Source: an uncultured bacterium (lineage in GTDB: Bacteria; Actinomycetota; Coriobacteriia; Coriobacteriales; Coriobacteriaceae). Taken from it: a DNA stretch of 64,000 nucleotides. The stretch spans positions 11,928 through 75,927 of the forward strand of contig CAJMST010000009.1 of assembly GCA_905216145.1 (NCBI GenBank). Reading direction: 5' to 3'. The notes beneath the pieces were generated by a model that searched no databases, was not told where the DNA came from, and was given only the letters and a program-made list of their open reading frames with translations. Positions 24,808 to 43,032 of this stretch are shown piece after piece (within the stretch, counting starts at the first letter, position 1; every line of letters starts with the position of its first letter). The position numbers and the translations under genes are program-made.

Positions 24808-24884
24808 TGGTGGACCTGACAAGATTCGAACTTGTGACCTCCCGGTTATCAGCCGGACGCTCTAACCAACTGAGCTACAGGTCC
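24808..24884 (-). tRNA. tRNA-Ile (anticodon GAT), copy 2
   Basis: Reverse complement GGACCTGTAGCTCAGTTGGTTAGAGCGTCCGGCTGATAACCGGGAGGTCACAAGTTCGAATCTTGTCAGGTCCACCA folds as a cloverleaf. Identical to 25032..25108. Confidence 0.92.
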
Positions 24885-24888
24885 ATCA

Positions 24889-24964
24889 TGGTGGAGGTTA
24901 GGGGGATCGAACCCCTGACCTCAGGCTTGCAAAGCCCGCGCTCTCCCAGCTGAGCTAAACCCCC
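24889..24964 (-). tRNA. tRNA-Ala (anticodon TGC)
   Basis: Reverse complement GGGGGTTTAGCTCAGCTGGGAGAGCGCGGGCTTTGCAAGCCTGAGGTCAGGGGTTCGATCCCCCTAACCTCCACCA. The G3:U70 alanine identity pair is present. Confidence 0.92.
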
Positions 24965-25031
24965 ACGGAGACAGTAATAAACACCCCAGCGGCGACTCGG
25001 CTCTCGCTGGGGTGTTTATTGCGAAAGAAAG

Positions 25032-25108
25032 TGGTGGACCTGACAAGATTCGAACTTGTGACCTCCCGGTTATCAGCCGGACGCTCTAACCAACTGAGCT
25101 ACAGGTCC
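25032..25108 (-). tRNA. tRNA-Ile (anticodon GAT), copy 1
   Basis: 77/77 identical to 24808..24884. Confidence 0.92.
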
Positions 25109-30298: not shown

Positions 30299-30862
30299 TT
30301 AAGGCTCTTTTTTGCTTTCTACGCCCTTGGCCCACTCGGCACTGGCTCTCATGGCATTCTCGAGGGCCTCGCGCAGTTTTTGGTCTTCGATGGGCGCCAC
30401 TTGGCGCTCAATCTCGGTGCGCTCGGCATCGCTGAGGTCGGCGTGCGGGGCCGGCGGGCGCTCGGTCGTCGCCGGGCGCAGGCGCTGCTTGGCGGCGGGC
30501 GGCGTGTGACCGGGCGCGGTGGTTTTGAACACCAGGCCGTCCACATGCGCACCGGCGCGCTCCATGCGCGCGCGGATGATCTCGCGCAACAGCGTCATTT
30601 CCTGCGTCCACGAGGGCGAGTCGAGATACACCAGCAGCTCATTGGACTCGGGCAGGTAGCGCAGGCCCGTCACATGCCGCCCCTCGCGCGTGCCCGAGCA
30701 CACCGCGTTCCACGCGCGATAGACCGCGCGCGACTCCTCGGCAGCCTCCATCTGCGCGCGGCGCTCAGGTGTCGCGGCCGTCAGGATGCGCTGGCGCTCT
30801 GCGTTCAAAAACCCACTGAAGGCGACCGTTTCGCTCTCGCGCTCGTAATTAGCACGTCTCAC
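30299..30862 (-). CDS. DUF721 (DciA-like) protein
   Basis: Occupies the conserved actinobacterial slot between recF and gyrB. The core (VYRAWNAVCSGTREGRHVTGLRYLPESNELLVYLDSPSWTQEMTLLREIIRARM) fits my recollection of DUF721. Its start overlaps the recF stop by 14 nt. Confidence 0.7.
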   Translation of the reverse strand: MRRANYERESETVAFSGFLNAERQRILTAATPERRAQMEAAEESRAVYRAWNAVCSGTREGRHVTGLRYLPESNELLVYLDSPSWTQEMTLLREIIRARMERAGAHVDGLVFKTTAPGHTPPAAKQRLRPATTERPPAPHADLSDAERTEIERQVAPIEDQKLREALENAMRASAEWAKGVESKKEP

Positions 30863-31955
30863 CCATGCTCACCACCTTGGCTCGATCAAGCAGGTCATCG
30901 GTAAAATACCCCAGGTTGGTCGTGGTTATGACCGTCTGGATATCATCGCCGATCAACCGCAGAAAAGCACCGCGGCGCTCGCCGTCGAGTTCGCTCATCA
31001 CGTCGTCCAAAAGCAGCAGTGGGGCGGTGCCCAGGACATCGCGAGCCACGGCCACCTCCGCCACCTTCCAGGCCAGCACCAACGTTCGCTGCTGACCTTG
31101 GCTGGCAAACGAGCGGGCGGAACGACCCGCCACGGTAAACTCAATCTCATCGCGATGCGGTCCCACCAACGTCACGCCGCGGCGAATTTCCTCGTCGGCG
31201 TGCTCATCAAGGGCAGCCAGCATACGCTCGTACGCCCAGCCCTTCAGCTCTTCGCGATCCTCGACCTGGGGCAAATCCCCCAGCGTGGACGTATAGGTCA
31301 CGTTGGCGGCCTCACCGGACGCCACTTGCCCGTAGGCAGTGTGCACATGGCCCGCCAGCCGGTCGAGCAGGGCCAACCGGTGCACGAGCAGGGCCGAGCC
31401 CGCGCGGGCAATCGAATCGTTCCACGCGCCGAGCACCTCGCGGCAGCACCAGGTCTCTTTGAGCAGGGCGTTACGCTGGGTCACGCAGCGCCCATAGGTG
31501 CTCGCAAGATCGGCATAGCGTGCGCTCAGTTGCATGCCAAAGTCATCGAGGGCGGCACGGCGCACACTGGCTCCTCGCTTAACCATGTCCAGATGGTCGG
31601 GGCAAAACAGCACGCTCGGCAGAACCCCGCGCACACCGGCGGCAGAACATCTCTTGCCGTTGCGGCTAAACGAGCGCTTACCGTCCTCCGCGCTCAACCC
31701 CATATCAAGCACGCGGCCGTCGCCCTCGAGCCTCAGCTCGACCTTGCACGAGCCCACGCCGTCATGGACGAGCTCGGCTGCGGTCGGATGCCTAAACGAG
31801 GCGCCGCTCGTCAGCAGCTGCAGCGCCTCTATGAGATTGGTCTTTCCCGCCGCGTTGGGTCCCGCAAGTATCGTCACGCCCTCGTCTAGGGCAAGGCGAT
31901 AGCTATCGAAGCTGCGGTAGTGCGCGACGGAAAGATCGCGGGCGAACATGGTCAT
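30849..31955 (-). CDS. recF: DNA replication and repair protein RecF
   Basis: MTMFARDLSVAHYRSFDSYRL..., Walker A GPNAAGKTNLIEAL, Walker B LLLLDDVMSELD. Start set to the ATG at 31955, 10 nt after the dnaN stop. The track ORF (to 32300) runs into dnaN in another frame. Confidence 0.9.
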   Translation of the reverse strand: MTMFARDLSVAHYRSFDSYRLALDEGVTILAGPNAAGKTNLIEALQLLTSGASFRHPTAAELVHDGVGSCKVELRLEGDGRVLDMGLSAEDGKRSFSRNGKRCSAAGVRGVLPSVLFCPDHLDMVKRGASVRRAALDDFGMQLSARYADLASTYGRCVTQRNALLKETWCCREVLGAWNDSIARAGSALLVHRLALLDRLAGHVHTAYGQVASGEAANVTYTSTLGDLPQVEDREELKGWAYERMLAALDEHADEEIRRGVTLVGPHRDEIEFTVAGRSARSFASQGQQRTLVLAWKVAEVAVARDVLGTAPLLLLDDVMSELDGERRGAFLRLIGDDIQTVITTTNLGYFTDDLLDRAKVVSMGETC

Positions 31956-31965
31956 AGGGCGGTTG

Positions 31966-33069
31966 CTAGATGCGGACCGGCATGACCAGGTACAGGTAGT
32001 TGATCTTGTCGTAGGACTTGAAGATGCCCGCCTGCGAGTAGCTCTTGAGCTCCAGCGTGATCTCCTTCTCTTTGGACAGGGCATTGAGGCAGCCGAAGAT
32101 GTAGTGGTAGTTGAAGGCGATGGTGCCCGACTCGCCCTCGGCCTCGACATCGATCGTCTCCTGCGCAAGGTCCTGGTCATTGGAAATGGAGGACAGGCCC
32201 ATCTGCCCGTTCTCGACATCGATCTCGAACTTGACGGCGGGGTTGGCGCTCGCGATAACGGCCACGCGTTTGAGGGCGGCGTTAAAGGCGGCGACGTCAA
32301 TCTTGACGCTCGTCACGCACGAATCGGGGATGAGCTGCTTGTAGTTGGGGTACACGCCCTCGATGCGGCGAGACACGTAGGTGGTGTTGCCGGCCTCAAA
32401 GACAACCTGGGTGTCAGTAGCCCCGATCATGATGGTGGCCTGGCTTGCCATGATGTTCAGCGCGTCGTTAAAGGCATCGGCCGGAACGTTGAGCTCAAAG
32501 GAACCCTCGAGGGTCGAGGTCTCGACCTGCGTATCGCACACGGCCAAGCGGAAAGAATCGGTCGCCACCAGGCGAACGGTGTTGTTCTCGACCTTCATGT
32601 GCACGCCACCCAGGATGGGGCGGGCCTTGTCGGTCGAGGTGACGCGCCACACGCGGCCGACCATTTCGGACAAGATATCGGTCGGCAGCTCCACGGCACT
32701 CTCGATGGCATAGGCCGGAAACTCGGGGAAGTCATTGACATCGAGCGTGTTCAGGCGGAAAGAGCTCTTCTCGCAACCAATCAGCACCTGGCGCTCGGAC
32801 AGCTCAAAGGTGACCGGGGCATCGGGGAGGGTCTTGGTGATATTGGAGAGCATCTTACAGGGGATAACCATCTCGCCCTCTTCTTCGACATGCGCCGCGA
32901 TGCGATGACGGATCGAGATGGTGTAGTTAGAGGTCTGGAATTCCAAGATGCCGTCTTGCGCCTTGACGAGCACGCCCGACAGGATGGGAAGGGTGGACGC
33001 CGAAGCGACACCCTTCATAACGACGCCGATGGCTTGTGTAAGCGAGCTCTGACTGACGGTGAACTTCAT
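31966..33069 (-). CDS. dnaN: DNA polymerase III beta sliding clamp
   Basis: 367 aa, MKFTVSQSSLTQAIGVVMKGVASASTLPILSGVLVKA. Canonical position between dnaA and recF. Confidence 0.92.
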   Translation of the reverse strand: MKFTVSQSSLTQAIGVVMKGVASASTLPILSGVLVKAQDGILEFQTSNYTISIRHRIAAHVEEEGEMVIPCKMLSNITKTLPDAPVTFELSERQVLIGCEKSSFRLNTLDVNDFPEFPAYAIESAVELPTDILSEMVGRVWRVTSTDKARPILGGVHMKVENNTVRLVATDSFRLAVCDTQVETSTLEGSFELNVPADAFNDALNIMASQATIMIGATDTQVVFEAGNTTYVSRRIEGVYPNYKQLIPDSCVTSVKIDVAAFNAALKRVAVIASANPAVKFEIDVENGQMGLSSISNDQDLAQETIDVEAEGESGTIAFNYHYIFGCLNALSKEKEITLELKSYSQAGIFKSYDKINYLYLVMPVRI

Positions 33070-33306
33070 CTTTAATACCTTTCTATAGATATAAATATCT
33101 TAATAATAGTAATAGCACTGACGAAACTGTTGATTACTCCCAAAGACGCAGGTCAGACCCAGAAAGAGAATCGACAGCAACCTGTGTGCAACAGGGGTGG
33201 TTTTCCACGTTCAAAACCTGCGCAAAACTTTTCATCACCGCGGATTGGGTTTTAGACACCTTATGCCCGTGGTTTCGACAAGTTTTCAACAGGTGTCTCT
33301 ATTTCC
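33070..33306. promoter_or_regulatory. Candidate oriC segment in the dnaA-dnaN gap: AT-rich unwinding-element-like stretch plus DnaA-box-like 9-mers
   Basis: 33070..33120 is about 20% GC (TTTAATACCTTTCTATAGATATAAATATCTTAATAATAGTAATAGCAC). Box-like sites: TTTTCCACG (33201..33209), TTTTCATCA (33229..33237) and TTTTCAACA (33283..33291), each 2-3 mismatches from TTATCCACA. Confidence 0.6.
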
Positions 33307-35031
33307 CTACGAGCGCAGTGTAATTTTATCGCGCAGCGACTTGAGGTCTTCGGTGACGGTGCGGTCTTCCTGGATCATCTTCTGGACCTTTTTGTAGCTC
33401 GTGCTGACGGTCGAGTGGTTGCGGTTGCCAAATTCGGCGCCTACCGCCGTGGTCGTCATCTCGCACATTTCGATGGCCAGGTAGATAGCGATATGGCGTG
33501 CTTTGGCGATATTGGCGTTGCGACGCGGGCCGATGAGCTCCTCGTGTGTCACGCCGTACTGCTCTTCGATGACGGACTGAACCGTTTGCACGTTGATCTT
33601 TTTGGCCGATGTGTCGAAGTACTGGCTGGCGATGGCGTCGATATCGTCAAAGGTGAGCTCCCCTCCCTCGCGCTCGCGGTCGCCCGCCTCGCCGGCGCAG
33701 CGCTCGCAGAAGCTCTCGAGTTCGCGGATGTTGGTGCCCGACACCTCTGCCATGTGCTTAAAGTGCTCATCGGTCAGGTGCCCGCCGTCGCCCCCGTAGG
33801 CCGCCAGCAGTGAGTCGTCGCCTGCCTCGGGAGCGGCGACGATGGTGTTCTCGTAATAGCGCTGCAAGATCTTGTATTTCATCTCGTAGCTGGGCTCTGC
33901 GACCAGGCAGAGCATGCCGGCGTTGAAGCGGCTGGTCAGACGCTCGTCCATGCTCAGGTCCTTGGGGGCGCGGTCTGCCGCGATGACGACCTTCTTGTTG
34001 TTGCGGATGAACTCGTCCATGAGCTGGAAAAAGTAGTCCACGCTCGCGCGCTTGCCGATGATGTTTTGGATGTCATCGATGATGAGCACGTCCACGCCGT
34101 GGTACGCCTGCATGATGGGGGCGTTGCTCTTCTTTTGGCGGTCGAACTCGGTCATCAGGTCGTCCAGATATGCCTGGGAATTGGCATACTTGACCTTGAT
34201 CTCGGGCGACTTCTCGGCGAGCTCGTTTTTGATAGCGAGCAACAGGTGGGTCTTGCCCAGGCCCGATTTGCCGTAGATGAACAGTGATGTGCACGTGCCG
34301 CGCTCGTCCGCGAGGGCGGCAAACTTGAGTGCCGAGCGATAGGCATGGCTGTTCTCGGGGCCGTAGACAAAGTTCTCAAAGGTAAATTTTGAGTTCGCGG
34401 CGAGTGGGGCTCCATCCGTATTCTGCTCGGCCGGCACGGCCGGTGCTGGCATGGGTGAAGCGGGGGTCGCAGCTTGCGTGGATTTAGTCGGCGCTCCACC
34501 CTTCATCTGGTTCATCATGCGACGAAAATCATCGGCCGAGAGCGTGTTCTTGATTGCAATGCCCGAATCCGCGCCCGCCGCTGCGTCGTGAGCGATGGGC
34601 ATGTGCGTGACGGGTGCGTTCGTTGACGTCGCCGCCGCGGTCGGCAACGGTGCCATGGTTTCACGGGAAGCATCGCTGTGCTGGTGCTCGATTGTCGGCA
34701 CGTCGCCTGCGGAGGCCGGTACCGCCGGGGAAGCAGCGGGAGCCGTGGCGGACGCCGTCGCGGCAGCGGATTCCGTCGCGGCGCCTTGCGGTGCCACGAT
34801 GTCGAGCGCAATCGGTGCAAAGGCGATTTCTTCCAGATAGGCCTCAATAGTCGGCTGATGCTTTTTGAGCTGCGCGATGGCAAAGCGCGAGGGCGCCTCG
34901 ATCGTGAGCGTATCTTCGGTCAGGCTTATGGCGCGCGATTGCCCCAGCATGTTGATGAGGCGTGCATCTTGGCCGTCGCGCTGGCAAAAGGCGATGGCAT
35001 CCCCCAGGATGATGCTTGCTTCCTCGTCCAC
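33307..35031 (-). CDS. dnaA: Chromosomal replication initiator DnaA (long Ala/Pro-rich domain II)
   Basis: GTG start with GGGAGAG 5 nt upstream. Walker A GKSGLGKTHLL, Walker B VLIIDDIQ. C-terminal DNA-binding signature (ANIAKARHIAIYLAIEMCEMTTTAVGAEFGNRNHSTVSTSYKKV). Confidence 0.95.
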   Translation of the reverse strand: MDEEASIILGDAIAFCQRDGQDARLINMLGQSRAISLTEDTLTIEAPSRFAIAQLKKHQPTIEAYLEEIAFAPIALDIVAPQGAATESAAATASATAPAASPAVPASAGDVPTIEHQHSDASRETMAPLPTAAATSTNAPVTHMPIAHDAAAGADSGIAIKNTLSADDFRRMMNQMKGGAPTKSTQAATPASPMPAPAVPAEQNTDGAPLAANSKFTFENFVYGPENSHAYRSALKFAALADERGTCTSLFIYGKSGLGKTHLLLAIKNELAEKSPEIKVKYANSQAYLDDLMTEFDRQKKSNAPIMQAYHGVDVLIIDDIQNIIGKRASVDYFFQLMDEFIRNNKKVVIAADRAPKDLSMDERLTSRFNAGMLCLVAEPSYEMKYKILQRYYENTIVAAPEAGDDSLLAAYGGDGGHLTDEHFKHMAEVSGTNIRELESFCERCAGEAGDREREGGELTFDDIDAIASQYFDTSAKKINVQTVQSVIEEQYGVTHEELIGPRRNANIAKARHIAIYLAIEMCEMTTTAVGAEFGNRNHSTVSTSYKKVQKMIQEDRTVTEDLKSLRDKITLRS

Positions 35032-35046
35032 TGTCTCTCCCGTTCT

Positions 35047-36471
35047 TTAGCTCTGAGCTCGCACGCGAGCGGCGCCGAGTTCGGTCAGATGGTATTTCTG
35101 GCGATGCTTGATGACCAAGCCAGCCTGCGCCAAGTCATTGAGCGTGCGTGACCAAGTGGGGGCCGAGTTTCCAAACGTCCTCGCCAGATCGGTTGCACCG
35201 CACGCTTGATTTTGCGCCAAATAGCCCAGCGCGGCGTTGCCGCGATCGCTTACGAACACGTCCGGTTGTGGCTGCGCATACTGATTTGCTGCATTAGGAT
35301 ACATCATTTGAGCTGCTGGTTGTTGAGAACTCTGCATCGGCGGCATTTGCTGTTGAAAACTTTGAGGCCACTGTTGGTAAGGCTGCGGAGGCATCTGCTG
35401 GGCCCAAGGGTTGTACTGCTGCTGCGGCATCTGCTGGTACGGCTGCTGATATCCCTGCTGGTACTGTTGCGGGAACTGCTGGCCATACCCCAGTGGCGGC
35501 ATCTGCTGATATGGATATCCCTGTTGGTACGGCTGATAGCCCATTTGCTGGCCACCCGGTGCTCCCGTCGCCTGCTGCATTGCTGCTGCATCCTGATCCG
35601 CCAGCGGCATGGTCTCTGGCATGTTTGGCGGCATCGACATCGATGTCGCCTGGGGCTCTTGTGTAGGAAGCATTCCGGGCTGCTGCATCTGTCCCACGGG
35701 GGGCTGCATCTGCTGCGTTGCCATGGGCTGCTGCGCAAAAGCTCCCGGCAGGGGATATGTGGGGTGCTCCGTCTCGGGCCGCACGGCAGCACCGCGTCCG
35801 CCGGCACGCTCGATTTCCTGCACGCGTTTAGGGTTCAGGCTTACCGTAACCACGGTGCCGTTGCCCATGTTGTCCTCGATGGATACGGCACCGCCGGCGT
35901 TTTCCAAATACTCCTGCACCATGGGAAACCCTGCTCCGGTTCCACGGATATAGCGCTTCATCTTGCTGTTTGCACTGGTAACGCCAAAGTCGAAAGCGCG
36001 TTCCTTGTCGTCGATGCCGGGTCCTTGGTCAGCAAAGCGGATGGTGTCTCCGCCGTCCAGAATCGAGATGATGGGCTCTGCAAAGTGTGCGTGGATAAAG
36101 TTTTCGACAATCTCGCGGATGACCATGAGCGAGATATGGCCACCTTGTTCTTTCATGCACTGGTAGACGGTGTTGGTCGTCTCTTCCAAATACGTGCGGA
36201 CATCTTGCGGATCGATGACGATCACACGCGGTGTCGACAGCATGTCGTCATAGACGGCGATGCGCGCGGCGTACATGGCTTTTGGCGCCTGCGTTGTCGT
36301 CTGTTCACCTTCGTCACGCTCTTCGCGCACGCCGGTGATGTGCTCGTTGTCGGGTGCCGGGTCTCCGGAATCGACCATGGTGTAAAAGTCGTCAGACATG
36401 CCGCTCGCAATCTTCCAAAAGGTTTCGAACAAATAGTAGCTCACCGTGCAATGTTTCTCATCTTTCGACAA
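35047..36471 (-). CDS. Uncharacterised GHKL (Bergerat-fold) ATPase - Gln/Pro/Tyr-rich low-complexity linker - winged-helix protein; first gene of the dnaA operon
   Basis: 474-aa ORF whose TAA stop is 15 nt upstream of the dnaA GTG, with no hairpin between. N-box-like REIVENFIHAH, G1-like ADQGPGID, G2-like IRGTGAGF. About 170 aa of Q/P/Y/M-rich sequence. C-terminal wHTH-like GATDLARTFGNSAPTWSRTLNDLAQAGLVIKHRQKYHLTELG. Start uncertain: TTG 36471, GTG 36444 or ATG 36399. Confidence 0.7.
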   Translation of the reverse strand: MSKDEKHCTVSYYLFETFWKIASGMSDDFYTMVDSGDPAPDNEHITGVREERDEGEQTTTQAPKAMYAARIAVYDDMLSTPRVIVIDPQDVRTYLEETTNTVYQCMKEQGGHISLMVIREIVENFIHAHFAEPIISILDGGDTIRFADQGPGIDDKERAFDFGVTSANSKMKRYIRGTGAGFPMVQEYLENAGGAVSIEDNMGNGTVVTVSLNPKRVQEIERAGGRGAAVRPETEHPTYPLPGAFAQQPMATQQMQPPVGQMQQPGMLPTQEPQATSMSMPPNMPETMPLADQDAAAMQQATGAPGGQQMGYQPYQQGYPYQQMPPLGYGQQFPQQYQQGYQQPYQQMPQQQYNPWAQQMPPQPYQQWPQSFQQQMPPMQSSQQPAAQMMYPNAANQYAQPQPDVFVSDRGNAALGYLAQNQACGATDLARTFGNSAPTWSRTLNDLAQAGLVIKHRQKYHLTELGAARVRAQS

Positions 36472-36600
36472 ACTTTCAAAACCTGTTGAAAACTTTAGAA
36501 AACGGACGAAAAGTTCTCAACATTGCCAACATGACCTGTTGAAAACTCGATGAAATATCGTGAAAAGTTGCCACGCACCGCTAAATCGAGCTTGGCTTAT
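36472..36600. promoter_or_regulatory. DnaA-box-like cluster upstream of the dnaA operon (second candidate oriC/inc segment)
   Basis: The 13-mer CCTGTTGAAAACT occurs at 36482..36494 and 36535..36547, and inverted at 33281..33294. Its core TGTTGAAAA is 2 mismatches from TGTGGATAA. Also CGTGAAAAG near 36560. Confidence 0.5.
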
Positions 36601-36672: not shown

Positions 36673-36744
36673 CTTCAAGCTCACGTGTCTATATCTGCGT
36701 CCGCGTCCCCGCGGACACTCGAAATGCAGCAGGAGGAACTTAAG

Positions 36745-36879
36745 ATGAAGCGTACGTATCAGCCTAATAAGCGTAAGCGTGCCAAGACCCATGGCTTCCG
36801 TGCCCGTATGGCCACTAAGGGTGGTCGTGCCGTGCTCGCCCGTCGTCGCGCCAAGGGCCGCAAGCGTCTCACTGTCTAG
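36745..36879 (+). CDS. rpmH: 50S ribosomal protein L34
   Basis: [44 protein letters not shown], with AGGAGGA upstream. The longest ORF starts at 36685. Confidence 0.95.
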
Positions 36880-37488: not shown

Positions 37489-38259
37489 ATGTGGGATTGG
37501 ATCGTTAACATCCTTTTCGAGCTGCTCAAGCTCATCCAGACCTTTGCGGTCGACTGGGGCCTGTCCATCATCATCCTGGTGGTCATCATCCGTCTGCTGC
37601 TGACGCCGCTTATGCTCAAGTCGACCAAGTCGACGGCTCGCATGCAGGTGCTGCAGCCCAAGATGCTCGAGATCCAGGAGCGCTATGCCGACGATCCCCA
37701 GCGTCAGGCCGAGGAGATGCAGAAGTTCTACAGCGAGAACAAGTTCAACCCCATGGCTGGCTGTCTGCCGCTGCTGATTCAGATGCCTATCCTGTTCGCC
37801 CTGTTTACATTGCTGCGCAACCTGCCGCAGTACTTTAACAACGGCACGTTCTCGTTCTTCAACATCCTGCCCGACCTGACCACCACGCCGAGCGCTTCCT
37901 TTGCCGATGGCTTTATGGTTGCACTGCCTGCGCTGGTTTGCCTGATCCTGTTTGCCGTCCTGACCCTGATTCCGCAGCTCTATATGTCGCGCAACCAGAC
38001 CGGCCAGCAGGCTCAGAGCATGCGTATGATGGCCGTTGTCATGACGGTCATGATGCTTTGGATGGGCTGGAGCCTTCCCGTTGGTGTTCTGCTGTACTAC
38101 GACGTCTCGTCTGCTTGGCAGGTTATCCAGCAGATTTTTGTGACGCAGAAGGTCATCGACAAGGCGAAGGCCGATGAGGAGGAGCGTCTTAAGAACGCTC
38201 CGCTGCAGGTTGAGGTCACTCGTCGCGAGAAGAAGCCGCGCCCGCACAAGAAGAAGTAG
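37489..38259 (+). CDS. yidC: Membrane protein insertase YidC (short Gram-positive type)
   Basis: Five predicted TM segments, LTPLMLKSTKSTARMQVLQPKMLEIQERY and NPMAGCLPLLIQMPILFAL motifs, basic C-terminal tail. Confidence 0.9.
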   Translation: MWDWIVNILFELLKLIQTFAVDWGLSIIILVVIIRLLLTPLMLKSTKSTARMQVLQPKMLEIQERYADDPQRQAEEMQKFYSENKFNPMAGCLPLLIQMPILFALFTLLRNLPQYFNNGTFSFFNILPDLTTTPSASFADGFMVALPALVCLILFAVLTLIPQLYMSRNQTGQQAQSMRMMAVVMTVMMLWMGWSLPVGVLLYYDVSSAWQVIQQIFVTQKVIDKAKADEEERLKNAPLQVEVTRREKKPRPHKKK

Positions 38260-38303
38260 TGGGATATCAATCTTATTTAGGTACCTAACTTTTGGAGTAC
38301 GTT

Positions 38304-38873
38304 ATGTCTGAAGAGATCATCGAGGATATGCTTGAGGAGGTTGCCCCGCAGGTCGCGGGCGATTATCCCGAGATTGCACAGCGCTACAAGGCTGGTGAAG
38401 AGCTGACCGATGAGGAGCTCGACACCATTGCCGATGTTGCGATTTCCATCCTGCGTTCCATCCTTTCGCACTTCGATGCCGCCAACTCTCCTATCGATGA
38501 GTATGAGGGCGACGAGGGTGAGCTGATTTTGGATGTAACGGCTCCCGACCTTGCTGTTCTCATTGGCCGTCATGGTCGCACTCTTGATGCTCTTCAGGTT
38601 ATGTTCTCTTTGCTGGTGAGCCGCAAGCTTGGCTTTAGGTATCCGGTTGTAGTGGACGTCGAGGGATACAAGAGTCGCCGTCAGGATAAGGTCGCCTCCA
38701 TGGCTCAGTCTGCTGCCGAGCGTGCCATCCGCACTCATAAGAGTGTTTCGCTTCCGCCCATGAATGCCTACGAGCGCCGACTGGTTCACATTGCACTTCG
38801 TGGCAACGATGCAGTCGATACTCATTCTGAGGGTTCTGACCCTGATCGCCATGTGGTGATTGTTGCTCGATAA
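38304..38873 (+). CDS. jag: Jag/KhpB-family RNA-binding protein (KH + R3H)
   Basis: KH-like LIGRHGRTLDALQ and R3H NAYERRLVHIAL. Start set to the ATG at 38304 (GGAG 6 nt upstream); the track ORF starts at TTG 38292. Confidence 0.85.
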   Translation: MSEEIIEDMLEEVAPQVAGDYPEIAQRYKAGEELTDEELDTIADVAISILRSILSHFDAANSPIDEYEGDEGELILDVTAPDLAVLIGRHGRTLDALQVMFSLLVSRKLGFRYPVVVDVEGYKSRRQDKVASMAQSAAERAIRTHKSVSLPPMNAYERRLVHIALRGNDAVDTHSEGSDPDRHVVIVAR

Positions 38874-38892
38874 TCTACTCGAGCTTATGCTA

Positions 38893-38923
38893 GGGGGACG
38901 TGGTTTCCACGTCCCCCTTTTTT
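38893..38923 (+). terminator. Intrinsic terminator after jag
   Basis: GGGGGACGTGG-TTT-CCACGTCCCCC followed by TTTTTT. Confidence 0.85.
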
Positions 38924-38969
38924 GTCAAAAGTTCTCGATACGCTGATTTTTGTCAGAAAGGAGCTTCAG

Positions 38970-39707
38970 TTGTTTGTACTTACCGATCAGCAGGCTGACG
39001 AGATGTTGAGTCGCCTAACTTCCTATTGCAAAGAATATTCCTTGAGCGTAACTGATATTGAGCTGAGGAAATGTATCCAGCATTTGGATTTGGTTCTAGA
39101 AACAAATAAGACAACCAATCTCACCCGTATTCTTAACGTAGAAGATGCTGCCGTACTTCATATCCTCGACTCACTTGTTTTGCTCCCCTATATCAATAAG
39201 GCTCCTGAGGGAGCTTTGCTCGATATGGGAACAGGTGCGGGCTTCCCTGGTATTCCATTAACCATAACCACGCATCGTAAAGCTACTTATATTGACTCTG
39301 TTGGCAAGAAGGTTGATGCGGTTAATTCCTTTGTCCATGCTCTTGGATTGAAACATGCTCATGCGGTTCATGATCGTCTTGAAGAATATGCTCGAAGTCA
39401 TAAGAAGCAGTTCTCTGTCGTAACCGCCCGCGCACTGGCCCCTCTACCGATTCTTGTTGAGTATGCAGCTCCGTTCCTCAAGGACGGAGGGCTATTTGTT
39501 ATCACCAAGGGCAATCCATCTGATGAGGAGCTTGCCTCTGGCATGTCAGCAGCTAAGATTTGCGGATTCTCTTCGCTTCTGAATGATGCAATCGATTTAC
39601 CAGAGGGCCTGGGCCACAGGGAGTTCATTGTTCTTAAGAAGAGTCATCCAGCATCTGTTTCATTGCCTCGTGCAAATGGCATGGCAAAGAAGAATCCGCT
39701 TGCCTAG
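38970..39707 (+). CDS. rsmG: 16S rRNA (guanine527-N7)-methyltransferase RsmG/GidB
   Basis: SAM-binding LDMGTGAGFPGIPL. Start set to TTG 38970 (AAGGAG 6 nt upstream), because the track start at 38922 lies inside the preceding terminator T-tract. Confidence 0.85.
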   Translation: MFVLTDQQADEMLSRLTSYCKEYSLSVTDIELRKCIQHLDLVLETNKTTNLTRILNVEDAAVLHILDSLVLLPYINKAPEGALLDMGTGAGFPGIPLTITTHRKATYIDSVGKKVDAVNSFVHALGLKHAHAVHDRLEEYARSHKKQFSVVTARALAPLPILVEYAAPFLKDGGLFVITKGNPSDEELASGMSAAKICGFSSLLNDAIDLPEGLGHREFIVLKKSHPASVSLPRANGMAKKNPLA

Positions 39708-39708
39708 A

Positions 39709-39802
39709 TGTTTCACGTGAAACATAATAGATATTAACAACATGCAGTGTTTCACGTGAAACATGGCGGTTGATATTGAATCGGAATGTTTCACGTGAAA
39801 CA
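39709..39802. promoter_or_regulatory. Array of three perfect parS sites (TGTTTCACGTGAAACA) at 39709..39724, 39748..39763 and 39787..39802
   Basis: Exact 16-bp palindromes matching the Firmicute/Actinobacterial parS consensus. Start-to-start spacing is 39 bp twice. Located between the rsmG stop and the parA start. Confidence 0.92.
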
Positions 39803-39841
39803 TCCTCCGTTTGACAGCTTTAATACACACCAGGAGGGACC

Positions 39842-40642
39842 GTGGGATTTCGCGACGTTAAGCGTTCTAAGAGCGCAAAAGACACGCGTATCATTGCAAT
39901 CATCAATCAAAAAGGCGGCGTCGGTAAGTCAACGACGGCTGTAAACCTAGCTGCAGCACTGGGCGAGCAGGGTCGTAAAACTCTGATTGTCGATTTTGAT
40001 CCGCAGGGAAACAGCACCAGTGGATTTGGAATTGAAAAAGAAGACCTTGATCACTGCATCTATGATGCATTGCTGAATGATGTGTCGGCAGAATCGCTTG
40101 TTCTTGATACAAATTGCAAAAAGGTATTTGTAATTCCGGCTACAATTCAGCTTGCAGGCGCCGAAATTGAGCTCGTAAGCGCAATTGCTCGTGAAACCCG
40201 CCTCAAAGATTTGCTTGAGCCGATTCAGGACGAGTTCGATTTCATTTTCATTGACTGTCCTCCTTCGCTCGGCTTGCTTACCATCAACGCCTTGACAGCA
40301 GCAGACAGCGTTTTGATTCCAATCCAGTGCGAGTATTATGCACTCGAGGGCGTTACGAAGCTGCTTGAGTCAATGAAGATGGTCAAATCACGTCTGAATA
40401 AGGGCTTAGACACCTATGGCGTGCTTATGACTATGTATGACTCGCGTACTTCTCTGTCGAATCAGGTTGTTGAGGAGGTTCAATCGTACTTTGGTGCCAA
40501 GGCGTTTAAAACGCTGATCCCCCGTACGGTTAAAATCTCCGAAGCTCCGTCTTTTGGAGAACCGGTAATTACCTATGCACCTCAAAATAAGGGTGCAAAA
40601 GCGTATATGAACCTTGCAAAAGAGGTGATCAAGCGTGCCTAG
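39842..40642 (+). CDS. parA: Chromosome partitioning ATPase ParA/Soj
   Basis: Deviant Walker A NQKGGVGKSTT, DCPPSLG; GTG start after AGGAGG. Confidence 0.93.
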   Translation: MGFRDVKRSKSAKDTRIIAIINQKGGVGKSTTAVNLAAALGEQGRKTLIVDFDPQGNSTSGFGIEKEDLDHCIYDALLNDVSAESLVLDTNCKKVFVIPATIQLAGAEIELVSAIARETRLKDLLEPIQDEFDFIFIDCPPSLGLLTINALTAADSVLIPIQCEYYALEGVTKLLESMKMVKSRLNKGLDTYGVLMTMYDSRTSLSNQVVEEVQSYFGAKAFKTLIPRTVKISEAPSFGEPVITYAPQNKGAKAYMNLAKEVIKRA

Positions 40643-41540
40643 TGCAAAGAAACGTGGCGGATTGGGACGTGGACTCAATGCTTTGGTCTCAGAGGCCGAG
40701 TATGAGACCGGTGGTTCGGCTGCATCCGCTTCAAAGGCTGCATCTGAAACGAAACTACCTATTGAGGATATTGTTCCCAACCCAAACCAGCCGCGAATTC
40801 ACTTTAACGAAACTGAACTTCGCGAGTTGAGCGAGTCAATCCAAGAACATGGCGTTTTGCAGCCGCTATTGGTTCGCAAGCATGGAAACGGCTATGAGAT
40901 CATCGCTGGTGAGCGTCGTTACCAGGCGTCAAAGCTTGCTGGTCTTGAGGAGCTGCCTGTCATCATTAAAGATGTTAGTGATGAAGAGATGCTTGCTCTT
41001 GCTCTTATCGAAAACCTTCAGCGTTCTGATTTGAATCCCGTCGAAGAGGCTAAAGGCTATCGCCAGCTTATCGATGCCAGCGGTATGACCCAGGAAGCAT
41101 TGTCGAGGGCAGTCAGCAAGTCACGCTCTGCAATTACAAACTCGCTACGCCTTCTCGATCTCCCGGAAGTTGTTCAGCAGATGATTTTTGAGGGCAAACT
41201 TACTGCTGGTCATGCACGTGCGATTCTTGCAGTTCCCTATGAGGATGCACGAATTCGACTAGCAGAGAAAGTTGTTGCGGAGGGCCTTTCCGTAAGAGCG
41301 ACAGAAAATCTTGCTCCGTTGTTTTCTGCCGGAGAGACACCTAAAACGCCTAGACCTGCAACGCCTCAGTCTTTTAAAAAGGCTGCCCGTGTGCTTCGTC
41401 AGGTATTTAATACCAACGTGCGTGTGAAGAGCTCGCGTGGAAAGAATAAGATTGAGATTGAGTTTAAAGACGAGGAAGAGCTCTCTCGTATTCTTGGCGA
41501 AATGGTTCAATTTGGGCAGGAGGATCAGGATGAAGAATAA
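40635..41540 (+). CDS. parB: Chromosome partitioning protein ParB/Spo0J
   Basis: GLGRGLNAL, ParB box LVRKHGNGYEIIAGERRYQASKLAGL, HTH region. 8-nt overlap with parA. Confidence 0.93.
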   Translation: MPSAKKRGGLGRGLNALVSEAEYETGGSAASASKAASETKLPIEDIVPNPNQPRIHFNETELRELSESIQEHGVLQPLLVRKHGNGYEIIAGERRYQASKLAGLEELPVIIKDVSDEEMLALALIENLQRSDLNPVEEAKGYRQLIDASGMTQEALSRAVSKSRSAITNSLRLLDLPEVVQQMIFEGKLTAGHARAILAVPYEDARIRLAEKVVAEGLSVRATENLAPLFSAGETPKTPRPATPQSFKKAARVLRQVFNTNVRVKSSRGKNKIEIEFKDEEELSRILGEMVQFGQEDQDEE

Positions 41541-41784
41541 GGTTCTCGCGGTCGTTGCGTTGGCAACCACCGTCGTCGCTGGCGCTTTTGCAGGCTATAA
41601 GCTTGCGACAGATGATGAACTACGCGGTCGACTGCTGCGCGGAGCCCAGGATATTGTCGATACATCCAAGAAGAAAATGGATGTGATGACCGAAGATGTC
41701 GCTATGCGCACTGCTCAGGTGACTAAGAATCCCAAGATTAACCAAGATTGGGTTAACCATCAGTGGGAAAATGTTGGTTATTAG
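41530..41784 (+). CDS. Small single-pass membrane protein
   Basis: MKNKVLAVVALATTVVAGAFAGYKL... (84 aa). The ATG overlaps the parB stop and GGAGGA lies upstream. The track ORF starts earlier, inside parB. Confidence 0.55.
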   Translation: MKNKVLAVVALATTVVAGAFAGYKLATDDELRGRLLRGAQDIVDTSKKKMDVMTEDVAMRTAQVTKNPKINQDWVNHQWENVGY

Positions 41785-41813
41785 GTACCTAACAATTACT
41801 TGCCTGTTTTGAA

Positions 41814-41855
41814 GGGGTCCTTGTCTTATACATGAGACAAGGACCCCATATTTTG
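41814..41855 (+). terminator. Intrinsic terminator closing the rsmG-parAB unit
   Basis: GGGGTCCTTGTCT...AGACAAGGACCCC followed by ATATTTT. Confidence 0.75.
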
Positions 41856-41892
41856 GCTAAAACTAAGCTTGAAGAAGCCAAGTTCAATAGTA

Positions 41893-41940
41893 TGAAAAAA
41901 ATGAAACAGCCCTGGTTGCATTATTTGCAACCAGGGCTGT
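41893..41940 (-). terminator. Intrinsic terminator after rlmN
   Basis: 15-bp stem ACAGCCCTGGTTGCA / TGCAACCAGGGCTGT, followed on the minus strand by TTCATTTTTTT. Confidence 0.65.
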
Positions 41941-41944
41941 CGGA

Positions 41945-41960
41945 TGTTTCACATGAAACG
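41945..41960. promoter_or_regulatory. Degenerate parS-like site (TGTTTCACATGAAACG, 14/16)
   Basis: Two mismatches to the perfect sites 2.1 kb upstream. Located just past the rlmN stop. Confidence 0.5.
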
Positions 41961-41979
41961 TTATGGGGCACAGACTCCC

Positions 41980-43032
41980 CTATGCGTTCTTCTGGACCTT
42001 GAAACGTTGCTTCAGCTGACCGCAGGCGGCATCGATATCATTGCCGCGAGAATTACGGATCGTGGTCTCGATGCCACGAGACTCAAGGCGACGCTGAAGA
42101 TCCTCAACCTTATGAATCGGCGACGGCTTGAGCGGGCTGCCCTCGATGTCGTTAAGCTGAATGAGGTTAACGTGGCACAGCGTTCCCTCGCAGAAGTCGC
42201 AGAGCGCCTGCATCTCGGGATTCGTATCGTTGACGCCTTCGATCATGGCATACTCATAGGTCGGGCGGCGGCCAGTCTTCTCGGTGTAGAGCTGAAGCGC
42301 TTCGTGAAGGCGAAGCAGCGTGTACTTCTTAACACCGGGCATGAGCTTATTGCGCGTCGACTGGATGGCGGAATGCAGGGAAACGGCAAGCGTGAATTGC
42401 TCGGGGATGTCGGCAAATTTGCGAATACCGGGAATAACGCCGCTGGTAGAGACGGTGAGGTGACGAGCGCCGATACCGATGCCGTCGGGGTCGTTGAGGA
42501 TTCGCAGCGCCTTGAGAACCTCGTCGTAGTTGGCAAACGGCTCGCCCTGGCCCATAAAGACAACGCTCGTGGCGCGCTCACCAAAGTCGTTGGATACATG
42601 AAGTACCTGGTCGACGATCTCTTGAGCGGTCAGAGAACGCTTGAGGCCGTTGAGGCCGGTAGCGCAAAAGGCGCAGCCCATGCCACAGCCTGCCTGGGTT
42701 GACACGCAGACGGAAAGCTTGTTGCGACGGGGCATACCGACGGTCTCGACGGAAACGCCGTCGTGGTACTCGAGCAGATACTTGCGCGAGCCATCTTTGG
42801 AAACCTGCTTGGTGAGTTCAGTCGGCGTGTCAAAGGCAAAAGCCTCTTTAAGCTGCTCGCGGAAAGCCTTGGGAAGGTTGGTCATGTCGTCAAACGAACA
42901 AACGTTCTTCTCAAAGACCCATTCGATGAGCTGCTTTGCGCGGAAGGCGGGCTGGCCAAGTTCGGCCACGAGCTCGCGAATATCGTTTTGGCTCAAGTCG
43001 CGAATGTCCTGAGATTTAGTCCTGGGATTCAT
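41980..43032 (-). CDS. rlmN: 23S rRNA/tRNA adenine-C2 methyltransferase RlmN (radical SAM)
   Basis: CVSTQAGCGMGCAFCATG radical-SAM cysteine cluster, VFMGQGEP, C-terminal DIDAACGQL. Confidence 0.9.
   Translation of the reverse strand: MNPRTKSQDIRDLSQNDIRELVAELGQPAFRAKQLIEWVFEKNVCSFDDMTNLPKAFREQLKEAFAFDTPTELTKQVSKDGSRKYLLEYHDGVSVETVGMPRRNKLSVCVSTQAGCGMGCAFCATGLNGLKRSLTAQEIVDQVLHVSNDFGERATSVVFMGQGEPFANYDEVLKALRILNDPDGIGIGARHLTVSTSGVIPGIRKFADIPEQFTLAVSLHSAIQSTRNKLMPGVKKYTLLRLHEALQLYTEKTGRRPTYEYAMIEGVNDTNPEMQALCDFCEGTLCHVNLIQLNDIEGSPLKPSPIHKVEDLQRRLESRGIETTIRNSRGNDIDAACGQLKQRFKVQKNA

Follow-up and report, generated by a model that had tools for sequence, protein, structure and literature searches.

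A GHKL and winged-helix protein encoded directly upstream of dnaA in Coriobacteriia: a new family of known modules with a striking linkage to dnaA

We analysed a 64,000-nt stretch of DNA from an uncultured bacterium of the Coriobacteriaceae (contig CAJMST010000009.1 of assembly GCA_905216145.1, positions 11,928 to 75,927 of the forward strand; hereafter the window). The subject of this work is the gene directly 5' of dnaA in the window, whose product, named X here, joins a GHKL-type ATPase domain to a winged helix-turn-helix (wHTH) domain. X represents a new family made from known modules, namely a catalytic and ATP-binding (CA) domain of the histidine-kinase type and a wHTH of the MarR/ArsR type, and the family has a striking, unexplained linkage to dnaA. 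The linkage is near-absolute: dnaA lies directly 3' of X, on the same strand, in 150 of 150 informative loci.

Three sets of loci make up this total. All 80 loci kept from the scan of genome collections belong to Collinsella, and dnaA follows X in each of the 74 with enough downstream sequence. The breadth of the sample comes from a metagenome scan and from look-ups of distant homologues. The same arrangement is found in 68/68 informative metagenome loci, the other 12 ending within ~200 nt of X, and in all eight distant homologues (P0256, P0262, P0219, P0331, P0213, P0431, P0434 and P0536). The median spacer between the two genes is ~71 nt long, and 75 of 81 loci have one that does not exceed 130 nt. 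The linkage also holds where the origin region is rearranged. At locus L085 (GCA_964631345.1) the dnaN-recF-gyrB-gyrA block is inverted away and the gene order is X-dnaA-rpmH-yidC-jag, with X still preceding dnaA; the order X-dnaA-rpmH recurs in nine metagenome loci (e.g. L113, L118 and L123). The lineage with the L085-type origin is of low G+C content (0.35 at the locus). In loci where the best high-scoring segment pair of DnaA has an identity of only 30-39%, the core of X still has 48-52%. The first-pass annotation of the window, made from the sequence alone, had proposed that the dnaA operon begins with X, and its linkage to dnaA proves to be conserved family-wide. Homologues scattered away from origins were looked for, and the linkage held throughout the informative loci.

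X is encoded on the minus strand. The 474-aa open reading frame (ORF) noted by the first-pass annotation at 35047-36471 exists and is counted in the ORF list of the window from a TTG at 36471. The frame itself is real, whereas its start is probably further downstream: since relatives begin with a motif of the MxDDFYPFVD type and homologues align from Met25, we suggest that X probably starts at Met25, an ATG at 36399, which lies 24 codons below the start of the 474-aa ORF. In the relatives the conserved motif M-[AS]-D-D-F-Y-P-F-V-D stands at residue 1, and the database homologues mostly start at the equivalent of Met25, with 90% query coverage. The putative coding sequence, based on the ORF list and the homologue starts, is 35047..36399 (450 aa plus the TAA stop). 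Residues are numbered here from Met25; adding 24 gives the numbering of the 474-aa frame (ORF474). The closest homologues are 96-100% identical and are named Collinsella sp. or C. aerofaciens, which places the window in Collinsella.

The stop codon of X is separated from the GTG start of dnaA (33307..35031, minus strand, 574 aa; Pfam Bac_DnaA 1e-41, Bac_DnaA_C 8.5e-21) by a spacer of 15 nt (35032..35046), and the junction reads TAA-AGAACGGGAGAGACA-GTG. The spacer holds the ribosome-binding site GGGAGAG at 35035-35041. The terminator scan found no terminator-like site or hairpin at the junction, and the RNA across the junction has less structure than shuffled sequence (z = +1.3). The short, hairpin-free junction described earlier is thus confirmed by the sequence and the scan. 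From the spacing we infer that X and dnaA form a two-gene operon with X nearest to the promoter; the operon would start just downstream of a DnaA-box cluster. A scan of 30-40 kb against Rfam, scored by E-value, gave no structured RNA or leader and one spurious match below threshold.

The N-terminal part of X carries a Bergerat-fold (HATPase_c) domain of the histidine-kinase CA-like type at residues ~41-200 (35800..36279, minus strand), assigned by Pfam, AlphaFold2 and Foldseek. The Pfam model PF02518 (HATPase_c) matches ORF474 residues 117-213 with E = 1.1e-10 and 42.3 bits (cut-off, 26.4), and gives 44.6 bits with the N-domain alone. Three motifs define the putative nucleotide site, all on the minus strand. 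The N-box REIVENFIHAH (ExxEN..H; 36085..36117, ORF474 119-129) contains E99, N100 and H103, invariant in 69 sequences. The G1 box DQGPGI (DxGxG; 36013..36030, ORF474 148-153), with the invariant D124, G126 and G128, aligns with DNGIGI of the Thermotoga histidine kinase HK853, and the G2 box IRGTGAGF (GxGxG; 35926..35949, ORF474 175-182), with the invariant G153, G155 and G157, aligns with GTGLGL of the same protein. Among these 69 diverse members K132 is invariant as well, and E96 is kept in at least 90%. Because the residues of the N, G1 and G2 motifs are invariant, the nucleotide site of X looks intact. X has a minimal Bergerat-fold domain, by its sequence, with the ATP/Mg2+-binding motifs all conserved, and ATP binding is predicted.

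Structure prediction agrees with this assignment. The AlphaFold2 model of the N-domain, built from the 69-sequence alignment, has a predicted local distance difference test score (pLDDT) of 90-97 in the core. A search of PDB sequences with X returned the CA domains of HK853 and KinB. With Foldseek, 126 matches in the PDB have E <= 1e-3, and all 50 listed bear a Bergerat-type ATP-binding domain. Among the matches listed are histidine-kinase CA domains, the kinase BCKDK and the protein DIP2311, with HK853 and BCKDK at E of ~4e-6 to 1e-4. The Bergerat/GHKL domain proposed by the first-pass annotation is upheld by these three lines of evidence, in contrast to the likeness to MutL that had been drawn: the domain resembles a histidine-kinase CA domain or a small kinase module. 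No GHL transducer domain is seen: X gives no Pfam match to DNA_mis_repair, DNA_gyraseB or HATPase_c_3, and the ATPase core runs straight into the linker in the AlphaFold2 models. We have rejected a MutL-like GHL ATPase because the transducer domain is missing.

In front of the CA core lies an aromatic N-terminal motif, MSDDFYTMVD (residues 1-10, 36370..36399, minus strand), recognised by its conservation. It appears as FYPFV[DE] in close relatives, as KPFFS or SFYSM in environmental relatives and as FDYSxV in Eggerthellaceae. Residues 1-40 are modelled with a pLDDT of 46-59, the ~30-aa spacer after the motif being of low confidence; the whole region before the core consists of these ~40 low-confidence residues followed by a beta-hairpin.

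The C-terminal residues 382-450 (35050..35256, minus strand) form a MarR/ArsR-type wHTH, assigned by Pfam on the isolated domain and by a homologue model. The isolated C-terminal 67 aa reach the Pfam cut-offs of HVO_A0261_N (35.3/35), MarR_2 (27.0/27) and HTH_IclR (23/22). In the full-length AlphaFold2 model of the 265-aa homologue P0331 the wHTH has a pLDDT of ~97 and an H-H-H-wing-H topology, and the wHTH seen earlier at the end of X is thereby substantiated. The C-terminal 68 aa have the H-H-H-wing topology and the Pfam cut-offs in common with MarR/ArsR-type regulators; unlike in MarR, only the wHTH core is present and the dimerisation helices are missing. If X dimerises, it would therefore have to do so through its GHKL domain.

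Between the two domains lies a low-complexity linker of 170 aa, defined by composition (residues 212-381, ORF474 236-405; 35257..35766, minus strand). It consists of 29% Q, 19% P, 10% M, 9% A and 8% Y, with 2.9% charged residues. Its length varies from 146 to 182 aa in the 80 Collinsella genomes, in frame every time. X of the window is identical to P0121 at 98% in the N-domain, 69% in the linker and 90% in the wHTH, and to P0130 at 73%, 34% and 47%, respectively. Judged from these sequences, the domains of X evolve at very different rates, and the linker is fast and of strain-variable length. A non-coding or artefactual ORF was rejected: the frame of the linker is kept through indels in 80 genomes and joins two conserved domains. 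Two further ORFs overlap X, one of 427 aa at 35206-36489 on the plus strand and one of 167 aa at 35304-35807 on the minus strand; neither is likely to be a gene, and both most probably result from the G+C-rich, CAG/CCG-rich sequence of the linker.

Linker length differs across the family: a short one is found in named Eggerthellaceae proteins of 245-266 aa, and elsewhere it reaches ~350 aa. The pooled long linkers of relatives have a high content of A, P, Q, G and Y. The Q/P/Y-rich disordered linker noted earlier is thus present in the window protein and is not a family-wide feature. By this comparison the long linker of Collinsella is a lineage-specific expansion, and condensate formation cannot be the core function of the family because these small Eggerthellaceae proteins have only a short one. 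In P0055 and P0007, from public Collinsella assemblies that include a 2.16-Mb NCBI contig, X is frameshifted within the linker repeat and the wHTH is lost; these versions may reflect sequencing or assembly error in the repeat, or real variation. Variants with shorter linkers (proteins of 381 and 406 aa) are common in metagenome assemblies.

To assess the extent of the family, the N-domain was searched exhaustively with phmmer through 1.84 billion representatives. At E < 1e-30 it matches 253 clusters at 50% identity, and over a 150-aa core the identity to all clades is 45-60%, with no gap in the alignment. The window protein carries the family core ARIAxYDD...ENxIHAxF...DQGPGI...IRGxGxGxP and the C-terminal wHTH, immediately 5' of dnaA. 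Going by the search results, we distinguish three groups among the members sampled. The first comprises Collinsella-like members and unnamed relatives with long A/P/Q/G/Y-rich linkers (up to ~350 aa) and proteins of up to 708 aa. The second is that of the Eggerthellaceae, with Raoultibacter sp. and 'Eggerthellaceae bacterium' members of 245-266 aa with a short linker and a member of 358 aa in Parvibacter caecicola. The third is environmental, with proteins of ~290-350 aa, and includes a metagenome-assembled genome named 'Coriobacteriia bacterium'. The organism names attached to members are of Coriobacteriia in every case and, judged by these named members, the family appears to be specific to Coriobacteriia.

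Members are annotated at source as 'ATP-binding protein', 'helix-turn-helix domain-containing protein' or 'histidine kinase', and some bear the automatic, COG-style label 'anti-sigma regulatory factor (Ser/Thr protein kinase)' from the Joint Genome Institute (JGI). Neither Pfam nor NCBIfam holds a family specific to X; only histidine-kinase and HTH models match. Phage collections gave no family member, and the matches in plasmid collections were to generic histidine-kinase CA domains only. We rejected a defence or mobile-element origin, with no match to a PADLOC system beyond the generic wHTH. Full-text searches of the literature found no description of the X family or of any gene that separates rpmH from dnaA in Coriobacteriia; PMC4255298 leaves rpmH unmentioned and describes Coriobacteriales as being without actinobacterial signature genes. 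It is well supported that the family is uncharacterised, and the first-pass suggestion of a previously undescribed protein has stood up to these searches of models and literature.

The region upstream of X carries a cluster of DnaA-box-like sites. It contains two exact copies of the 14-nt repeat ACCTGTTGAAAACT (36481-36494 and 36534-36547), found by repeat search, each with the DnaA-box-like TTTTCAACA on the minus strand, in agreement with the DnaA-box-like repeats reported there before. The window holds six copies of TTTTCNACA where 1.23 are expected, and no shuffled sequence had as many. A sigma-70-like promoter match, TTGAGA-17-TAAAGT (36492..36520, minus strand), identified by consensus only, is the only one on the minus strand between 34800 and 37000. 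The 14-nt repeats flank and overlap this site, whose -10 end is directly adjacent to the proximal DnaA box. In ~98 kb from eight loci, 23 of the 29 strict DnaA boxes, defined as TT[AT]TC[CA]ACA, fall in the intergenic region upstream of X. The dnaA-dnaN intergenic region (33070..33306) is a candidate part of oriC by its DnaA-box-like sites and an AT-rich stretch beside dnaN: TTTTCAACA lies at 33283-33291, and TTTTCAACAGGT at 33283 is an extended motif that is also found upstream of X. The origin of this genome may be split between the dnaA-dnaN and rpmH-X regions. In most other Coriobacteriia loci nearly all boxes lie upstream of X, where the upstream region measures 590-950 nt vs 213-285 nt here. 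Footprinting within Collinsella was uninformative, since the 54 unique upstream sequences are ~97.5% conserved throughout.

Comparison with known proteins places X close to several systems and within none of them. Histidine-kinase CA domains such as that of HK853 are the best match in sequence and in Foldseek and have the fold and the N, G1 and G2 motifs in common with X. However, histidine kinases have a DHp/HisKA domain, a phospho-acceptor histidine, a sensor or transmembrane region and a response regulator nearby, all of which X is without, its CA domain being fused to a wHTH instead. Pfam gave no HisKA-type match, and the loci inspected have no response-regulator gene beside X, its neighbours being rpmH and dnaA; a two-component sensor histidine kinase was rejected on these two grounds. 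SpoIIAB/RsbW and BCKDK/PDK resemble X as stand-alone Bergerat domains of ~150 aa with ExxxN. They differ in that X bears a DNA-binding domain, gives no match to HATPase_c_2 (PF13581) even at E <= 10 and has no STAS or sigma partners nearby, and X was not assigned to the anti-sigma serine kinases on the last two of these points.

The only solved structure that aligns with both domains of X, in the same order of a GHKL-like domain followed by a wHTH, is DIP2311 of Corynebacterium diphtheriae (PDB 3lmm), an uncharacterised structural-genomics protein. It is the best PDB match to the full-length P0331 model (271-285 columns, E = 3e-6) and gives the best template-modelling score for the N-domain of X, 0.51-0.56. 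DIP2311 is, however, much larger, with chains of 477-556 residues against 265 aligned, and the identity is 14-16%. We take it to have HATPase_c_4 as its ATPase-like domain and an extra AlbA_2/Schlafen-type N-terminal domain; neither AlbA_2 nor HATPase_c_4 matches X in Pfam. With the known regulators YabA, SirA and Soj of Firmicutes, Hda, DiaA and SeqA of Proteobacteria, HobA of Helicobacter, and MtrA and AdpA of Actinomycetota, X would have in common the role of a taxon-restricted initiation factor. Pfam and NCBIfam searches gave no homology of X to any of these regulators. We know of none among them that is a GHKL protein or the first gene of a dnaA operon.

We suggest, with a probability of about 0.45, that X binds DNA, responds to ATP and regulates either the dnaA promoter/oriC region or DnaA. 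GHKL domains commonly dimerise on ATP binding, as is established for GyrB, MutL, Hsp90 and MORC, proteins other than CA-like modules of the X type. The binding of nucleotide to the GHKL domain of X would probably promote dimerisation in the same way. The dimerisation would then control how two wHTHs engage the DNA of oriC or of the dnaA promoter, or how X contacts DnaA, and the transcription of dnaA and/or initiation would thus be tuned to the nucleotide status. Co-translation from one mRNA would keep the X:DnaA ratio fixed. Nucleotide-controlled pairing of two wHTHs is the simplest model, because a minimal wHTH of this kind, which has no dimerisation helices, must be paired through another domain. 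In Collinsella the long Q/P/Y linker may be a lineage-specific spacer or an add-on for multivalency, not the core of the mechanism.

Several points weigh against this proposal. ATP binding, dimerisation, DNA binding and the targets of X are all predictions from sequence and models. The argument for co-transcription with dnaA is one of spacing, and dnaA may have a promoter inside X. The arrangement of the domains relative to each other is not confident in the AlphaFold2 models, with a predicted template-modelling score of 0.66. The k-mers shared by nine diverse upstream regions are, of those that occur widely, only DnaA-box variants, with no other conserved motif that could be an operator of X. 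Finally, rnpA, yidC, jag and rsmG also keep an origin-proximal synteny and have no replication role.

The last two points lead to an explanation that we regard as somewhat unlikely, in which X acts outside replication, as a general transcription factor or a nucleoid-associated protein, and stands beside dnaA through a frozen origin block, gene dosage or growth-rate-coupled expression. It fits the rpmH-rnpA-yidD-yidC-jag-rsmG-parAB block, equally conserved without such a role, as well as the missing X-specific operator near oriC and the generic character of wHTH domains of this type. A frozen block, however, does not sit well with loci in which dnaN has been inverted away (L085) or rpmH has moved downstream of dnaA (L085 and the nine metagenome loci) and X has stayed with dnaA; the operon-like spacing and the linkage in every informative locus argue in the same direction.

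The nature of the ATPase domain raises another explanation, which we consider unlikely: X could be a small GHKL protein kinase or partner-switching factor, similar to SpoIIAB/RsbW or BCKDK/PDK, that phosphorylates or sequesters a partner, most obviously DnaA, with the wHTH as a tether near the origin. The domain is sized like a CA or anti-sigma kinase module and is without a GHL transducer, BCKDK is among the top Foldseek matches, some members bear the JGI label of an anti-sigma factor, and a dnaA operon suits a stoichiometric partner. The ExxxN spacing of X (E96...N100) fits the catalytic-base arrangement of PDK/BCKDK, SpoIIAB and GHL ATPases. Such a kinase is, however, hard to reconcile with the missing PF13581 match, with the absence of STAS/anti-anti-sigma or sigma genes in the loci inspected and of a DHp/HisKA domain in Pfam, and with a phospho-acceptor that is not identified. 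A scaffold whose main function is to form condensates, with a prion-like linker that phase-separates and concentrates DnaA or origin DNA, is very improbable. It would account for the 170-aa uncharged linker rich in Q, P and Y, for the similar bias of the pooled long linkers and for a reading frame kept through indels; yet the Raoultibacter and 'Eggerthellaceae bacterium' members have only a short linker where others have up to ~350 aa, and the linker diverges quickly, so that condensation would be at most a lineage-specific addition. Compared with these alternatives, we prefer X as an ATP-responsive regulator of the dnaA promoter/oriC region or of DnaA.

The divergent neighbour of X is rpmH (36685..36879, plus strand), followed by rnpA, yidD, yidC, jag, rsmG and parA; on the other side dnaA is followed by dnaN (31966..33069, minus strand) and then recF on the same strand, all by the ORF list. 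The longest ORF of recF (30849-32300) begins at a TTG, encodes 483 aa and shares ~330 nt with the 3' part of dnaN; since the SMC_N/RecF-like genes at this place in related loci are 358-393 aa long, recF itself probably starts well downstream of that TTG. In the rsmG-parA intergenic region, three perfect parS sites, TGTTTCACGTGAAACA, lie at 39709-39802, spaced exactly 39 bp apart, with a chance expectation of none; they produce repeated 'MFHVKH' pseudo-ORFs in the ORF list. The G+C content is 0.475-0.495 at 38001-42000 (jag-rsmG-parA and beyond) vs ~0.60 in the rest of the window. A tight tRNA-Ile(GAT)/tRNA-Ala(TGC)/tRNA-Ile(GAT) cluster is located at 24808-25108 on the minus strand. The Collinsella DnaA (33307-35031) is long, with 574 aa, and a low-complexity stretch rich in A, P and T separates its domain I from the AAA+ domain. 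DnaA_N has no Pfam match in this DnaA and is detected in environmental relatives. The length of X after the ATPase core (linker and wHTH) correlates weakly with that of DnaA (Spearman 0.36), over loci that are not phylogenetically independent.

To our knowledge, the control of DnaA outside Proteobacteria and Firmicutes is largely unknown, and the known regulators are lineage-specific and mutually unrelated. The Coriobacteriia include abundant bacteria of the human gut (Collinsella and relatives of Eggerthella), and a gene kept beside dnaA in every lineage of this class that was sampled is an obvious candidate for the missing DnaA regulator. In our comparisons its ATPase core is better conserved than DnaA. 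A wider version of our proposal, possible but doubtful at present, is that X founds a new class of initiation regulators, in which a GHKL switch with a wHTH, co-translated with DnaA, would gate initiation or dnaA autoregulation by ATP status across Coriobacteriia, through oriC DNA and/or DnaA, and the expanded linker would add a multivalent, possibly condensate-type, origin assembly in Collinsella-like lineages. If true, X would be, as far as we know, the first initiation regulator based on a GHKL module. The range of linker lengths, from short in some Eggerthellaceae to ~350 aa, offers a natural experiment on disordered linkers in a DNA-binding ATPase, and if X is essential, it would be a taxon-specific target.

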